64,000 bases of DNA from positions 384,001 through 448,000 of the forward strand of contig CBDCWP010000021.1 in NCBI GenBank assembly GCA_965223505.1. Direction: 5' to 3'. Below are positions 48,474 through 58,067 of this stretch, piece by piece. The stretch is from Planctomycetota bacterium (GTDB lineage: Bacteria > Planctomycetota > PLA2 > JAEUHO01). The translations under genes and the position numbers were made by a program. Below the pieces are notes generated by a model that was not told the DNA's origin, searched no databases, and was given only the letters and a program-made list of their open reading frames with translations. The stretch's first letter is position 1; every line of letters begins with the position of its first letter.

Positions 48474-49613
48474 ATGCGCAGAACCCTCTCGATTTGGCTC
48501 CTGCTTCTCGCTGCATTCGGCAACGTTCACGGGAACCCGGACGAGAACGCTCCCGTCCTTCGACCGTTGCCGCTCGTCGAGGGCGTGCGAGACGTGTTGA
48601 ATCGCAAAGGCGACCTTGCGGCGCTGAAGAAGACCGACGAGTACCGCCGCGCCAAGCACGTCGGTCTGGACCTGGCCGACTACGACGGCGATCCCGTCGT
48701 CGCGCACGGGATGCGCGATGGAACACTGTTCTACGTCTTCTACAAGAAGATCGAGCGCGCCTACGCACGGCGTGTTTGGGTCGTGCAGCGCATCAAACGC
48801 ACCGAGCGCAACTGGCGGAAGGGCGTCGACGAGCCGGAGACGAAGGTCACCTACCAGGTCGAGGCGTTCAAGCTCTTCAGCGGTGAGCAGAAGCGCGGTG
48901 ACCAGCATCACGGCGGCTACGGGATCAAGGACTTCGTTCGACGGGAGATCGTCAAGGAGTACGAGATCGGGTTCGCCGACATTCCGGGGCTCGCGGAAGG
49001 CGATCCGTGGCCCTGGAAGAAATCGACGCTGTTCGAGTACATCGCCCGCTACGGCCGAAGTGACGAGGTCTATCGAAAGGTCTCGTTCCACCGCTCGGTG
49101 ACGTGGTCGCTGACGGTCACGCTCGACGCGGCCGGCAATTATCGCGTCTTGGCGCCCGAGCTGGGAATCGACGTGCCCGTGAAACGCACGGACCCCGCCC
49201 GCACGTTGCCCGAGCCCCTGACCGTCGGAGCGTCGCTGGTGCTCGTTCGCGGCGTCGGGCTCGAAGGCACGCGCGCGGACGAGGGCTGGTTCGACGACTA
49301 CGTCGAGCGGGCGGGCAAGGTGCTGCAGGAGGAGCGCTTCGCGTCGGGCCACTCGAACACGATTCTCGCCGCCGGGTTGATGGCGAACCGGCGCAAGGAC
49401 GGCTCGCTCAACACGCTGCAGACCCGGGCGGGCTTCGCCGGCCGCACCAAGGAAGGGATCGCCGTCGGTTCGCCGCGTTGGGCGGTGCTCAAGGCCTACG
49501 GCCAGCCGAAGGACGCGAAGGTCGGCGCGGCATGGTGGCACTACGGCGACATCGGGTTCTGGTTCGACGGATTGGACCGTGTGGGGCGCTTCTACGTTCG
49601 GGCGAAACGCTAG
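48474..49613 (+). CDS. Secreted hypothetical protein
   Basis: Signal peptide MRRTLSIWLLLLAAFGNVHG; GC3-rich coding bias. Confidence 0.75.
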   Translation: MRRTLSIWLLLLAAFGNVHGNPDENAPVLRPLPLVEGVRDVLNRKGDLAALKKTDEYRRAKHVGLDLADYDGDPVVAHGMRDGTLFYVFYKKIERAYARRVWVVQRIKRTERNWRKGVDEPETKVTYQVEAFKLFSGEQKRGDQHHGGYGIKDFVRREIVKEYEIGFADIPGLAEGDPWPWKKSTLFEYIARYGRSDEVYRKVSFHRSVTWSLTVTLDAAGNYRVLAPELGIDVPVKRTDPARTLPEPLTVGASLVLVRGVGLEGTRADEGWFDDYVERAGKVLQEERFASGHSNTILAAGLMANRRKDGSLNTLQTRAGFAGRTKEGIAVGSPRWAVLKAYGQPKDAKVGAAWWHYGDIGFWFDGLDRVGRFYVRAKR

Positions 49614-49790
49614 GTCCTCTATCGCCGGTTCTCAAGCGCCGTCGGGCTTGCCATCCGTTTCCGGCTTCGGCGCGAACTGGAAGGGGACCGTCAAGTCGCC
49701 ATTCATTTCGAAGGGCGTCGGTGCCGGGAGCGCGATCTTCGCGTGCGTCGTTCCCTCGGGGGGCTGCACCGCAGCCCCGGCGGCGCCGCC

Positions 49791-50579
49791 TCACCCATAC
49801 CGCATCGCCCCCTCGGCGAGCACGTCGCCGTCGGCGTTCAAGCACTGCCACGTCAGGCCGATGCGCTTGCCCCTGCGGTAGAGCGTGTTGCCCAGCCGCT
49901 TCTCCGCCTGGAAGACGACGCCGATCCGGTGCTGCCCCTTGCGCTCGAACGCACGCGCCTTCACCACGAGGCCGGTCCGCACGGCGCAGTGCGTCGTTTC
50001 GTCGGCCGTCACCTCGATTTCGCGGAAGGACGGCGAGGTCGTGGACCAGATCCACTCGGTTCCGTCCTTCTCCGCCTCGATGTGCCGGTAGCCGGTCACC
50101 TGGTACGAACCCACGGGCAACGGACGCTCGCGTTGCTCGTCATCGGGCGACCACCGCAGGCGGTACGTCTGTGACCTGTCGCCCTTGCGGAAGAGGAACA
50201 GCTCTCCATTGGCGATGGTCGACGTCACGAGCCCCGTCGGCGTCTCGTCGCCGTGCGAGGCCGTCGCAGACACGACGCAGGTCGGCTTGCCCTCTGCGTC
50301 GTTCTCGAGGTACTTGATCAAGGCCTCACGGGCCTCGGGCGGGGTGCCCGTTCACGAGGTTTCGGTCACCTGCCGCAGGAACGCGCGATCGGTCTCGAAG
50401 GTCGTGTCCGGCACGGTGTGGCACTTGGCGCAGGTGTGATGCCACGCTTCCTTCGCCTTGGCCGTCCAATCGACCGCGTCCTCGTCGGTCTTGTCGTCGG
50501 CGGCGAGCTCCATCATGCCGATGGAGAACCACGTGGCGACGACGACGGCGAGCATGCTTGCGCGTACCGGAATGCTCAT
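49791..50579 (-). CDS. Exported monoheme c-type cytochrome domain protein with in-frame UGA (putative selenocysteine 76)
   Basis: GGAGGT RBS, signal peptide and CAKCH (aa 50-54). TGA at 50352-50354 is in frame with ORF 49791-50321; readthrough gives ...VTETS-U-TGTPPEAREALIKYL, 262 aa. Confidence 0.75.
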
Positions 50580-50866
50580 GACGACCTCCGGCTTCCACGA
50601 TAGCAGCCTGGTGCGGCGGCCCCGGAGGCGCGGCTGCGGACGGAGGCGAGGCTCGCCGCCGCCGCGGTGGGGGCGCCTCCCGCGCCGGCGGACAGGCCGT
50701 AGCCGCCCGTTAGGGCTCACGTGGAATTCAGCGGTCATCGCGAGTGGCCGCTGCCGAGAACTTCGGACAGACTCCCGTTGCCGGTGCTCCTCTCTCACCC
50801 GGAGGAGCGCCGGTGTGGACTTGTCAGTGTGGGTTTGCGGTGCGTCTCCTAGGGGGGGACACACCC

Positions 50867-51484
50867 GTGTCAGTTGAGACAATCGCCACTGCGCGGCCCC
50901 GGCCTGCGCAGAGTGGCTTCAGTTTGCTCGAGGTGCTCATCGGCGCCGTCGTGCTCGCCGTCGCGTTGCTGGGCCATCTCGCCAGCACCGGAACCGAGCA
51001 CCGTCTGGCGGAGCAGCAGCGCGTTCGCAGCCAGATGCTGCAGACGACGCGCCAGTTCATGGAGCGGCTGCGCTCCGACGAGAACTGGGACACGCTCTAC
51101 GATCGCCTGCGGACCGCGCAGTTCTCGCTGACCGTCGACGGCAAGGCCGGCACGGCGCTCGACAGCGGGAAGCTCGCGTGGCAGTTGACCGACTACTACC
51201 CGGAGATCGTCGTCCCCGAAACGCTCAGCGACATGCGAGTCCGCGTGGAGGTCCCCGCGACGCCCACGATGGTCAGTGGGGCACTCGGCATGCGGCTGCG
51301 CGAGGACGCGAGTCTCGAACAGTTCGGGCTCCCCGCGGATCTCGACGGAACCGGGACGATTACGTCCGATGTGTGCGACGACAGCTACGTCGCGCTGCCG
51401 GTGGTCGTCACGTTTCGCTGGGAGCTTCGCGGCCAAGCGGCGCGTGAGATGCGGGTCGCCACGTGGCTCAGGGGGAATCGATAG
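50867..51484 (+). CDS. Prepilin-type N-methylation domain protein (PilV-like minor pilin)
   Basis: QSG|FSLLEVLIGAVVLAVALL; probable GTG start at 50867. Confidence 0.85.
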   Translation: MSVETIATARPRPAQSGFSLLEVLIGAVVLAVALLGHLASTGTEHRLAEQQRVRSQMLQTTRQFMERLRSDENWDTLYDRLRTAQFSLTVDGKAGTALDSGKLAWQLTDYYPEIVVPETLSDMRVRVEVPATPTMVSGALGMRLREDASLEQFGLPADLDGTGTITSDVCDDSYVALPVVVTFRWELRGQAAREMRVATWLRGNR

Positions 51485-52069
51485 ATGTCCAAGTCCACTG
51501 CTTCACAGCGCGGCTTCACGTACCTCGAAGTGCTGATCGTCATGGTGATCGCGGGAACGGCGCTCGCCGGTCTCGGCAAGTCCCTCACGACCGCTCAGGA
51601 TCTCTCGAGCGAGACGCACCTTCTGGGGCAGGCGCATGCCGAGCATCGCAGGAATTTCGAGGCGATCGGCAACGCGTTGCGCTCCGTCGACATCAACACC
51701 CTCACCGGTTTCGTCGACAAGACGGTGGACGGCGACGTGATCAGCGTCGCCGCCAACCCGACGTTCGCCCGCGTCATCGGCACGCAGGACGACGCTCGTG
51801 TCTACAGCGACACCGAAGAACTTCGCTGGGAGAGCGTTCCCACGGTCATCGACGGCATCGCGAACCCCGGCCAAGTGAGCTTGGTCACGCTCAACAACGA
51901 CGGAACCGTCAAGAGCAAGGTCATGATCGGCAAGAACGTACCGTCCGGCGGTTTCCTGCTGCGCCAGGAAGGGCGCACGCTCGTCATCGCACTCACCACC
52001 TACTACGTCCTTCCCGGCCGCGAGCCGTATGTCGTGAGCAGCGAAAGCGCTGTGTCGCTGAGGAACTAG
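51485..52069 (+). CDS. Prepilin-type N-methylation domain protein (PilW-like minor pilin)
   Basis: QRG|FTYLEVLIVMVI; ends V.LRN. Confidence 0.85.
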   Translation: MSKSTASQRGFTYLEVLIVMVIAGTALAGLGKSLTTAQDLSSETHLLGQAHAEHRRNFEAIGNALRSVDINTLTGFVDKTVDGDVISVAANPTFARVIGTQDDARVYSDTEELRWESVPTVIDGIANPGQVSLVTLNNDGTVKSKVMIGKNVPSGGFLLRQEGRTLVIALTTYYVLPGREPYVVSSESAVSLRN

Positions 52070-52071
52070 TC

Positions 52072-53316
52072 ATGGACACCAAATCGAAGAGCCGCCGGAC
52101 CACCGAGTCGGGGATGATGATCGTGGTCGTCGCGTTCGTCGTCGTCTTGATGGCGGGCCTTTCCCTCGGCTTCTTGACCACGGGCCTTTCCGAGCGGCAG
52201 TCCGTCATCCACCACGAAACCAGCATGGAGGCCCTCGAGATCACGGAGATGGGTCTCGTGAAAGCCGAGTCGATGATCCGCGGACAGACCGCCAAGGACA
52301 GCGACTCGATCAGCGGCGCGTACGCCGACGGGACGTTCGAGGTGGGGATGGAGCACGACCCCGACCGGCCCCGTCGCTGGGTGCTGACCGGCGAGGCCTC
52401 GAAGGGGCACAGCCAGCGTCGCGTCGAGGTGGAGCTGCGCATCTTCTTCGACGGGCTGTTCAACCACGGCATGTTCGGGAAGCGCTCGCTGGACATCCGC
52501 TCGACCTCGACGACCGACTCCTACGACAGCCGTCTGGGTACCTATGCCTCGCAGGCCGTCAATGTCGACGCATACGGCGTGCACGCGGACGGCGATGCGC
52601 ACGTCGGCAGCAACGGGAGCGTCACGCTGAGCGGTACGGGAATCGTGCGCGGTGACGCCATCCCGGGTCCGCTGAGCACGACGACGGTGAACGGTACTTC
52701 CTCGGTCGATGGGGATCAGATCCCCCTGCAAGACGAGCTGGACGTCCCCGACATCCGCTACGCCGTGTTCGCCGACGCGCTGGCGAACAACAACAACGCG
52801 TCCATCGACGGCACGCTGCCCGGCGTGACCTACAACGCCGCAACCTACAAGCTCAGCGTGAAGGCCGGCGCGACCCTCGTGCTCGACCCGGGGACGTACT
52901 TCTTCACCGATCTCGTCCTCACGGGCGGTTCCAACATCGTTCTGACCGGCCCGGTCAAGTTCTACGTGACGGGACGCTTCAACCTGGGCGGCGGTTCCAT
53001 CCTCAATAGCAGCATGCGGGCCAAGGACCTTCAGGTGTACGCGCACCCGTATGCGTTGCCCGCGGGCCACGCACCGGGCACCCACCAGCTGATCGTGAAC
53101 GGCCAGTCCGCCACGGCGATGGCCGTGTACGCGCCCGAGCGCGACGTGCTGATCGACGGCGGCGCGCCGTTCTTCGGCGCCGTGGTCGGCCGCGACGTCG
53201 TCATCCAGGGTGATTCGCAATTCCACTACGACCGGGAGCTGGGCGACATCTTCGGCGAGAGCACGGCGACCGTCGAGCGCCTCTACTGGCGCGAGCTCTC
53301 GGTACCTGCACGGTAG
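52072..53316 (+). CDS. PilX-like minor pilin with C-terminal beta-solenoid domain
   Basis: ESG|MMIVVVAFVVV (no E5, as in PilX); TDSYDS, GSNG, VYAP and FHYD motifs. Confidence 0.8.
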   Translation: MDTKSKSRRTTESGMMIVVVAFVVVLMAGLSLGFLTTGLSERQSVIHHETSMEALEITEMGLVKAESMIRGQTAKDSDSISGAYADGTFEVGMEHDPDRPRRWVLTGEASKGHSQRRVEVELRIFFDGLFNHGMFGKRSLDIRSTSTTDSYDSRLGTYASQAVNVDAYGVHADGDAHVGSNGSVTLSGTGIVRGDAIPGPLSTTTVNGTSSVDGDQIPLQDELDVPDIRYAVFADALANNNNASIDGTLPGVTYNAATYKLSVKAGATLVLDPGTYFFTDLVLTGGSNIVLTGPVKFYVTGRFNLGGGSILNSSMRAKDLQVYAHPYALPAGHAPGTHQLIVNGQSATAMAVYAPERDVLIDGGAPFFGAVVGRDVVIQGDSQFHYDRELGDIFGESTATVERLYWRELSVPAR

Positions 53317-57308: not shown

Positions 57309-58067
57309 ATGGCCGCCAACGCATTCATGCCCAAGCTCGCGATCGCGTTGCTCGGGTGCCTCGTTCTCATCGGAGTCGTCATGGGCGATACCCACGTTCC
57401 CGTCGCCATCGAACCCGACGCCAAGCTGCCGGAGGGTGTCGAGGTCGCGACCTTCGCGCTCGGGTGATTCTGGGGCCCCGACACCCGGTTCGGGAGTCGC
57501 CCTGGTGTTCTTCGCACGCGCGTCGGCTATGCCGGCGGAACGAAGGACAAGCCGACGTACCGCAACCTCGGGGATCACACCGAGGCCATTCAGATCGAGT
57601 TCGATCCGAAGAAGATCAAGTACGAGGAGCTGCTCGACATCTTCTGGTCGTCGCACGATCCCTTCGGGCGCTCGTGGTCGACGCAGTACAAAGCCGTGCT
57701 CTGGACCCACGACGAGGCGCAGGAGAAGGCCGCCAAGAATTCCATCGAGGCGCTCGCCAAGAAACACCAGGGGCGCCAGCCGACCACCGAGGTCGCCAAG
57801 GCCACCAAGTTCTGGATCGCCGAGGACTACCATCAGAAATACTCGCTGCGCCGTCACAAGGCGCTCATCGATGCGTTGCTCGACGGCGACGTCACCGAGG
57901 AGAAGATCCGCGAGAGCACAGTGACTACGCGTGCGAACGGTTGGGTCGCCGGCCACGGCACGAAGGCCGAGATCGAGGCCGAAGCCAAGGCGCTCGGCCT
58001 GAGCGAGAAGGCGCTCGAGGCGCTGCGCCGCGTGCTCGGGGAGCGAATGCCCGTCGGCTGCGGGTAG
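57309..58067 (+). CDS. msrA: Peptide-methionine (S)-S-oxide reductase, selenocysteine form, with signal peptide
   Basis: ATFALG-[TGA 57465-57467]-FWG replaces GCFWG, followed in frame by TRVGYAGG, HTEAIQIEFDP, QY and FWIAEDYHQKY. Start is 57309 or 57327. Confidence 0.93.
57479..57499 (+). promoter_or_regulatory. Candidate bacterial SECIS hairpin of msrA
   Basis: GAC-A-CCCG-GTT-CGGG-A-GTC stem-loop with G/GU in the apical loop about 20 nt after the UGA. Confidence 0.6.

Follow-up and report, generated by a model that had tools for sequence, protein, structure and literature searches.

The window analysed here, a stretch of 64,000 nucleotides of DNA from a Planctomycetota bacterium, contains on its minus strand, at positions 50579-49635, a reading frame that carries a heme c attachment motif and is crossed by in-frame TGA codons. 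This locus raises the question whether the frame is one gene in which TGA is read as selenocysteine (Sec), and which role such a residue could have next to a heme. The evidence presented below, derived from sequence comparison, points with good confidence to a single gene for an exported c-type monoheme cytochrome with two selenocysteines, the first of which (Sec76) would lie at the distal site of the heme. An earlier, sequence-only reading of the same DNA had proposed a monoheme selenocytochrome of 262 residues. The assignment as a selenoprotein gene holds, as illustrated by TGA or Cys at codon 76 in homologues, the Sec machinery of the genome and the hairpin behind the codon; the protein has two selenocysteines instead of one, and 315 residues instead of 262.

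The complete coding sequence (49635..50579) specifies a precursor of 315 residues with TGA as Sec at codons 76 and 263, and its homologues are collinear with it from end to end. Direct reading of the sequence gives an ATG start at 50577..50579, preceded at a distance of 5 nt by a Shine–Dalgarno-like GGAGG (50585..50589). The first 26 residues or so (MSIPVRASMLAVVVATWFSIGMMELA, 50502..50579) resemble a signal peptide, and all homologues have a hydrophobic N-terminus. Codons 50 to 54 encode the heme c attachment motif CAKCH (C50, C53 and H54; 50418..50432). The TGA of codon 76, hereafter site 1 (50352..50354), is found 22 codons past the His of this motif and is followed by 186 open codons beginning TGTPPEAREALIKYL. 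The only start codon of genetic code table 11 in this downstream open reading frame (ORF) is a TTG at 50321, which lies inside a helix. All elements listed in the sequence-only reading, i.e., the N-terminal signal, CAKCH, the TGA at 76, the 186 codons, the lack of another start than TTG and a hairpin, are indeed present. The end of the gene had been placed at 49791, which proved wrong: the TGA at 49793-49791 is codon 263 (site 2), a second in-frame TGA that is conserved in 51 of 51 resolved loci. Past this codon the frame remains open for 52 more codons up to the true stop, a TGA at 49634-49632, and homologues end at the equivalent place (TAA or TAG in 29 of 51 loci, TGA in 20). A convergent ORF terminates at 49613, adjoining this stop. 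Both in-frame TGAs are reproduced with 0 differences in contigs from other samples of one study. A promoter and terminator scan of the locus found none.

The conservation of both codons among homologues is the main argument for translation through them. When the 262-residue reading was searched as query against 61 related genomes in all six frames, 14 places in 12 genomes were found. Within the span of that query, ten of these places have one in-frame TGA, one has two and three have none. The TGA of these relatives aligns with residue 76 in the context ..T[ST]-U-[TS]xTP.., and Cys is present at this position in the three places lacking the codon. All 14 places, the Cys forms included, additionally carry a second in-frame TGA at site 2, in the context ..YG-U-GGG... 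Past site 2 the tail is conserved as well, with a TGPF...G motif, and has a length of 35-65 codons.

A profile search of 401 genomes sampled across Planctomycetota detected the family in 59 of them at the family threshold of E<=1e-5. Near-full-length places number 49, in 46 of the 401 genomes, and each of the 49 contains in-frame TGA. All homologue genome records are metagenome-assembled genomes. In a census, 54 loci were classified, of which 51 were resolved and three are cut by contig ends. Site 1 is TGA in 33 of the resolved loci and Cys in the other 18, and site 2 is TGA in all 51 and never Cys; the census consequently consists of 33 Sec/Sec and 18 Cys/Sec loci, none of which combines Sec at site 1 with another residue at site 2. 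Because the same TGA is present in 33 of the 51 loci and Cys takes its place in the remaining 18, the TGA at site 1 is beyond chance. Alignment of TGA or Cys with residue 76, the test set beforehand, thus gave a positive result, and Trp or another non-Cys residue, which the sequence-only reading regarded as contradicting it, was encountered in 0 of 41 aligned sequences and 0 of 51 census loci. Across dozens of genera the protein is conserved on both sides of both TGAs. The frame past site 2 ends with TAA or TAG in 29 loci, with an extension of 35-49 codons, and with TGA in 20; in two it runs past the end of the sequence. In a maximum-likelihood tree of 50 members, the Sec or Cys state at site 1 requires at least two changes, and a Cys form (L081) is sister to a Sec form (L074) with support 100/99.

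Two paralogues of the family occur together in each of three genomes: G032 and G243 combine a Sec/Sec with a Cys/Sec copy, and in G071 both copies are Cys/Sec. A third in-frame TGA was observed at codon 144 of locus L012 (1438-2355, plus strand), a position that is Trp (YRLR-W-SPDD) in all other homologues; an error of sequencing, a polymorphism or decay of this copy could account for it. Two paralogues of one genus (L020:1408-2337 and L023:1333-2262) end in ...KGC-TGA-GK-stop, which is not seen in related loci. We take this end to resemble the GCUG end of thioredoxin reductase. The TGA in question might be a third Sec or merely a stop.

Protein databases contain the family mostly in pieces. 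A profile search of 1.84 billion representative proteins gave 1039 matches at E<=1e-3, of which 320 reach E<=1e-10, and most of the 150 matches listed begin just past site 1 or end at site 2, i.e., where gene callers cut. The 26 database matches to the window protein are all middle pieces of 161-182 amino acids. Among 14 database proteins that were retrieved, 11 continue through site 2, and nine of these are full length; the latter are included in the alignment of 41 sequences. At site 1 all nine of these distant forms have Cys.

The genome has what is needed to decode Sec, as had been supposed from the window alone. It contains a tRNA-Sec (69 bits, above cut-off) as well as SelA, SelB and SelD, and selD, which has an in-frame TGA of its own, adjoins selA (G000:C8:37088-39232; L010, L064). 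SelB together with tRNA-Sec would insert Sec at both UGAs by means of the downstream hairpins described below. Within the phylum, SelA is present in 290 of the 401 sampled genomes. Homologues bearing a TGA occur in 55 genomes and, according to tables read by eye, SelA is found in all but two of these (53 of 55). Both genomes that lack it are fragmented assemblies, one of 410 contigs and 90% completeness, the other of 990 contigs and 84% completeness. In four genomes that have TGA-less partial matches alone, SelA was not found.

About 20 nt past each UGA there is a conserved hairpin of the bacterial selenocysteine insertion sequence (SECIS) type, as judged from pairing and compensatory changes. 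The consensus for bacterial SECIS elements has an apical loop about 16-37 nt past the UGA, with a G in the loop. The site-1 hairpin, already pointed out in the sequence-only reading, has the core GAGGCC-CGUGA-GGCCUU at 50336-50320, and an additional C-G pair extends it to a stem of 7 bp (50319..50337); its CGUGA loop starts 21 nt past the UGA. The hairpin at site 2, GGGGCUGC-GGU-GCAGCCCC (49760..49778), has 8 bp and a GGU loop that starts 20 nt past the UGA. Among 22 Sec-form sequences with loop CGUGN, pairing at site 1 is kept in 92.2% of cells, against 84.8% in shuffles, of which 0 of 500 reached the observed value; slid controls gave 37-61%, and three of the seven pairs show compensatory changes. 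For site 2 the corresponding figures, from an ungapped alignment of 32 sequences, are 91.9% against 68.4% (0 of 500 shuffles) and 38-57% for slid controls, with compensatory changes in six of the eight pairs. The site-2 hairpin is kept even where the encoded peptide is a different one (GSYSHPW in place of GGGGWAS), and in two members with an insert of four residues the site-1 hairpin is shifted, not lost. A hairpin at a common position past site 1 was not found in the Cys forms. Mean fold energy past site 1 is -18.7 kcal/mol in Sec forms versus -15.5 kcal/mol in Cys forms (one-sided Mann–Whitney U test, p=0.02). Past site 2 it is -19.8 versus -13.4 kcal/mol past the real stop (p=6e-8), G+C content being different between the two regions (0.74 versus 0.65). 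In the Rfam database no SECIS family was matched at E values up to 10.

These results bear on two explanations in which no Sec is incorporated. The gene could be decayed or consist of three separate ORFs, with TGAs that terminate and a frame that is a chance product of high G+C content. Long chance ORFs are common in the DNA of the window, and gene callers do split the gene, as seen from the database matches that are all middle pieces of 161-182 residues. Such an origin is nevertheless very improbable given that dozens of genera have TGA in these two columns, each flanked before and behind by conserved protein sequence, that Cys substitutes at site 1, that the hairpins covary, that the middle piece lacks a good start codon and that contigs from other samples show the same bases. 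Even less probable, to the point of being negligible, is a variant genetic code in which TGA stands for Trp or another standard residue. The single homologue with TGA at a Trp position (L012) is what such a code would produce. Against it speak the TGA that terminates the gene itself at a place where TAA or TAG serves in homologues, the exchange of TGA for Cys and never for Trp at site 1, the absence of internal TGA from the frames of SelA and other genes, and the presence of the Sec machinery.

The second part of the question concerns the heme. The mature protein's N-terminal portion, residues 35-95 approximately (50295..50477), would form a small class-I-like cytochrome c domain according to both a structure model and a profile match. 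The AlphaFold2 model, built on the 41 sequences, has a predicted local distance difference test score (pLDDT) of 88.9 and a predicted template modelling score of 0.82; it consists of three helices (38-48, 62-73 and 81-92) followed by beta strands in residues 100-300. A profile of the 70 N-terminal residues matches mitochondrial-type cytochromes c in the PDB (E=5e-4), in an alignment that covers the N-terminal helix with CxxCHTV and the C-terminal helix. Weak matches to PF13442 were obtained in 26 of 32 members. Scans with Pfam and NCBIfam of the whole protein, of its pieces and of six homologues returned no family above threshold. With class I cytochromes c (PF00034/PF13442) the protein shares three features: CxxCH closes the N-terminal helix, the amphipathic helix at the C-terminal end of the domain follows the pattern (A/E)R..L(I/V).(Y/W)L in the alignment, and the candidate distal residue is situated in the loop before this C-terminal helix. 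The protein differs from these cytochromes in the absence of a distal Met, in the spacing of 21 residues between the heme His and site 1, in scores below cut-offs and in the fusion to two beta-sandwich domains.

All 41 aligned sequences contain CxxCH, and C50, C53, H54 and Sec/Cys76 are the only invariant columns of the alignment. C50 and C53 very likely bind the heme covalently, H54 being its proximal ligand, and the genome encodes CcsA and ResB, the pair of system II cytochrome c maturation. The loop with the distal Met precedes the C-terminal helix in class I cytochromes c. In the model, Sec76 comes directly past helix 2 and before the C-terminal helix, and the spacing of 21 residues is the same in 32 of 32 loci checked, with a loop of variable length past site 1. 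The window protein has no Met between CAKCH and the C-terminal helix, and among the 41 aligned sequences neither a conserved Met nor a second conserved His is available as distal ligand. Because it is invariant, has a fixed spacing, takes the position of the distal loop and has no conserved Met or second His as competitor, Sec76 is the natural candidate for sixth ligand. Its location at the distal site of the heme, as ligand or as catalytic residue, appears likely. That Sec76 would be the true distal axial ligand stands at slightly less than an even chance, and binding of the heme iron by Sec76 is plausible. Sec76 would then act in the manner of the Cys in His/Cys-ligated cytochromes, possibly as ligand and catalytic residue at once, as in TsdA.

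The remainder of the protein had been described as an unknown beta-rich domain fused to the cytochrome. Beta-rich it is; it comprises two beta-sandwich domains, the second of which is immunoglobulin (Ig)-like and bears Sec263, as suggested by the model and by VIA-align. The first (residues about 100-200; 49980..50282) is delineated by AlphaFold2 secondary structure with pLDDT above 90. The second (residues about 202-305; 49665..49976) is of the Ig-like or macroglobulin (MG)-like type: its best VIA-align match is MG1 of E. coli alpha-2-macroglobulin (Z 8.2, root-mean-square deviation 2.8, 76 aligned), a generic Ig-like fold. VIA-align matches are in general of the generic Ig, MG or fibronectin type 3 kind, and Foldseek against the PDB yielded weak tandem Ig-like matches alone (template modelling scores 0.2-0.3). 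Neither of these searches, which hardly probed the heme domain, points to a function. MccSep structures such as 9WT8, which the searched library may not contain, came up in neither of them. Site 2 is contained in a Gly-rich loop, YG-U-GGAAG, between strands 253-258 and 266-271. By analogy, Sec263 would reach the heme site and pair with Sec76 as a Se-Se redox couple (Se-S in the Cys forms).

The Ig-like module with Sec also recurs without a cytochrome domain, in exported Planctomycetota ORFs of about 330-500 amino acids (L087 in G223:C592, L088 in G143:C147, L089 in G084:C15, L090 in G395:C190, L091 in G093:C97, and L092 and L093). The motif in these heme-less proteins is FEYG-U-G(G/F)(S/T)C, with a Cys four residues past Sec. 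In five genomes their genes are situated 1.5-9 kb from selA on the same contig.

The closest analogue of such an arrangement is MccSep. ExtKL (GSU2937-2936) of Geobacter sulfurreducens was first spotted as a split cytochrome gene in 2007, going by the part of that article at hand (PMC1914089). It is identified as MccSep, a pentaheme polysulfide reductase, in the portion of a preprint that was available, where heme 2 is ligated by His122/Cys239 and Sec325 of a C-terminal Ig-like domain lies 3.6 A from Cys239 (bioRxiv 10.1101/2025.11.18.688581). As far as that portion of the preprint goes, both proteins are exported c-type cytochromes whose heme domain has a conserved Cys-type residue and whose C-terminal Ig-like domain bears a Sec, and both genes are split by gene callers at a TGA that has a SECIS-like hairpin just past it. 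In contrast to the five hemes of MccSep, the Planctomycetota protein has one heme and one CxxCH, and its heme-side residue, the counterpart of Cys239, is itself Sec in most members, hence the two selenocysteines. The Sec motif differs too, being YG-U-GGG in this family, with a site 2 that is never Cys, and PDG-U-P in MccSep as given in the same part of the preprint. By this analogy, heme, Sec76 and Sec263 would form a minimal monoheme counterpart of the heme-Cys-Sec site, and the proximity of Sec76 and Sec263 is put forward as a proposal.

Cytochromes with a Cys as axial ligand offer a second comparison. NaxLS of anammox Planctomycetes is a His/Cys-ligated c-type cytochrome. TsdA and SoxAX are named as such in the available portion of the MccSep preprint (bioRxiv 10.1101/2025.11.18.688581). 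The Planctomycetota family shares with TsdA and SoxAX the combination of CxxCH and a conserved Cys-type residue with neither Met nor second His, and a periplasmic or exported location; in TsdA and SoxAX the ligand Cys is also catalytic in sulfur chemistry. No sequence match to these proteins was seen and, in contrast to them, the residue is Sec in 33 of the 51 loci. The Cys forms (18 of 51 loci) would be ordinary members of the His/Cys-ligated cytochromes. Ligation of heme by Sec is not unprecedented in nature, since a native Sec-ligated cytochrome P450 has been reported, ncCYP subfamily M, in which TGA/Sec replaces the usual Cys iron ligand; according to the part of that work at hand, it was found as truncated ORFs that are read through to the next stop (bioRxiv 10.1101/2024.12.22.630014, PMC11703216). 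As described there, the P450 has a b-type heme, the P450 fold and Sec as sole, proximal protein ligand, whereas the Planctomycetota protein has an unrelated fold and would have a covalent c-type heme with His/Sec ligation. In the literature searched, no report of a His/Sec-ligated cytochrome c was found.

In view of these analogies, the protein is most likely an extracytoplasmic redox enzyme or carrier that acts on sulfur, selenium or another small redox-active substrate. Judging by TsdA, SoxAX and MccSep as analogues, compounds of sulfur or selenium would be the most plausible guess, and from sequence and model the active site is read as the heme with Sec76, which Sec263 may assist in most members. 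A bolder and decidedly tentative proposal, with the odds somewhat against it, is that the family represents the first natural c-type cytochrome with a His/selenolate-ligated heme, in which Sec263 from the Ig-like domain forms a heme-Se-Se centre. It would in that case be a minimal monoheme enzyme class convergent with MccSep and widely used by Planctomycetota for extracytoplasmic sulfur or selenium redox reactions.

A different use of the same residues is possible, though rather unlikely. In such a two-Sec heme protein the iron would not be bound by Sec76: the heme would be five-coordinate or take water or another group as sixth ligand, Sec76 and Sec263 would form a diselenide/selenol couple beside it or Sec76 would be a lone nucleophile, and the heme would do no more than relay electrons. 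The two selenocysteines are kept together in 33 of 51 loci, with none having Sec at site 1 alone, as expected for a couple. The available portion of the preprint likewise gives the Sec of MccSep as catalytic and not as ligand (bioRxiv 10.1101/2025.11.18.688581), and the Cys four residues past Sec in the heme-less paralogues suggests that the module is a self-contained redox loop. A couple of this kind fits less well with the invariance of site 1 in a family whose distant members dispense with Sec at site 2. Site 1 coincides with the position of the distal ligand loop in class I cytochromes, and the family offers no further conserved residue as candidate ligand. It is improbable that CxxCH is not a heme site at all and that the protein is a cofactor-free thiol/selenol oxidoreductase using CxxC, Sec76 and Sec263. 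Most known bacterial selenoproteins are thiol-type redox proteins (PMC13188914, section 7), and the Pfam cytochrome models remain below threshold. Yet the His after CxxC is invariant (41/41), two helices, the N-terminal one with CxxCHTV and the C-terminal one, can be aligned with those of cytochrome c (E=5e-4), the N-terminus resembles a signal peptide in a genome that has CcsA and ResB, and in one subfamily a tetraheme cytochrome gene is adjacent.

Several observations weigh against a two-Sec cytochrome with Sec76 at the distal heme site and have to be set against the evidence for it. The cytochrome domain scores under the Pfam gathering thresholds (best PF13442 E=0.0013), and the spacing of 21 residues between His and site 1 is much shorter than in known class I cytochromes. 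Site 2 lacks the usual Sec/Cys signature, with Cys in 0 cases, and in the nine distant full-length database homologues it is occupied by G/S, S, R, P, N, E or A (9/9); a mechanism based on two residues can therefore not hold for the family as a whole. No sequence relationship to MccSep/ExtKL is detectable, NF040886 not being matched at E values up to 10. The subfamily to which the window protein belongs has no conserved gene neighbourhood. Regarding the hairpins, z-scores versus shuffles are modest (about -1.1) in DNA of 70% G+C, and the site-1 stem overlaps conserved Ala-Arg-x-Ala-Leu codons, so its conservation could partly reflect the protein. Those alanines are not conserved in the Cys forms, which fits with a constraint on the RNA at the site-1 stem.

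With these points taken into account, the two-Sec cytochrome describes a family that is widespread (near-full-length in 46 of 401 sampled Planctomycetota species genomes) and was found in no catalogue checked. A 2026 review enumerates 119 prokaryotic selenoprotein families, three of them related to heme: ExtKL (NF040886), the GSU2204 family (NF041027) and an octaheme cytochrome of the tetrathionate-reductase type (TIGR04315) (PMC13188914, Table 1). None of these three models matches the Planctomycetota protein, and the family is not among the 119. No description of it was found in the literature, BSepDB or deep-Sep, while the supplementary lists of the MccSep preprint and of selenoproteome papers could contain it. 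The suggestion of an undescribed selenoprotein family, made with some reserve in the sequence-only reading, thus agrees with every family library and list checked. Gene callers systematically cut the gene, and annotation of the phylum therefore misses the family.

To the heme selenoproteins and His/Cys cytochromes already known, the family would add one with two selenocysteines. With Sec at the sole position besides CxxCH that never changes to anything but Cys, the protein is a tangible candidate, provided by nature, for a c-type heme bound by selenolate. Nature offers both Sec and Cys forms, which allows a direct comparison of selenium with sulfur at the heme site. By analogy, the catalytic heme-Cys-Sec arrangement of MccSep may have been realised once more, independently and in a far simpler protein. 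The prevalence of SelA in the phylum points to selenium-dependent extracytoplasmic redox chemistry there.

The gene neighbourhood is informative for one subfamily of Cys forms, recognised by the signature CxxCHC...TCI, ..T-U-GS... In nine of its nine loci (L020, L023/L031, L077, L078, L079, L082, L084, L085 and L086), a small tetraheme cytochrome c gene (Paired_CXXCH_1/c3/c7-like) is located directly upstream in the same orientation. Such an adjacent cytochrome fits with an electron-transfer or enzymatic role, and it would supply electrons in this subfamily. This upstream gene was seen in none of the other homologous loci examined. Pfam searches on 54 neighbouring ORFs (from the window and six loci) revealed no shared partner except frequent TPR/HEAT proteins, and a tblastn search with seven neighbours from the window against homologous loci, whose flanks mostly measure 1.5 kb only, found none.

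Two other features of the window can be mentioned. The Sec-type msrA reported in the sequence-only reading is borne out by a methionine sulfoxide reductase A homologue (PMSR match) with one in-frame TGA at 57447-57860 on the plus strand, which is probably that gene. Divergent from the cytochrome gene, the region 50744-53316 on the plus strand contains a cluster of pseudopilin-like ORFs: they encode a DUF7305 protein and proteins that carry the prepilin-type N-terminal methylation motif (PF07963).

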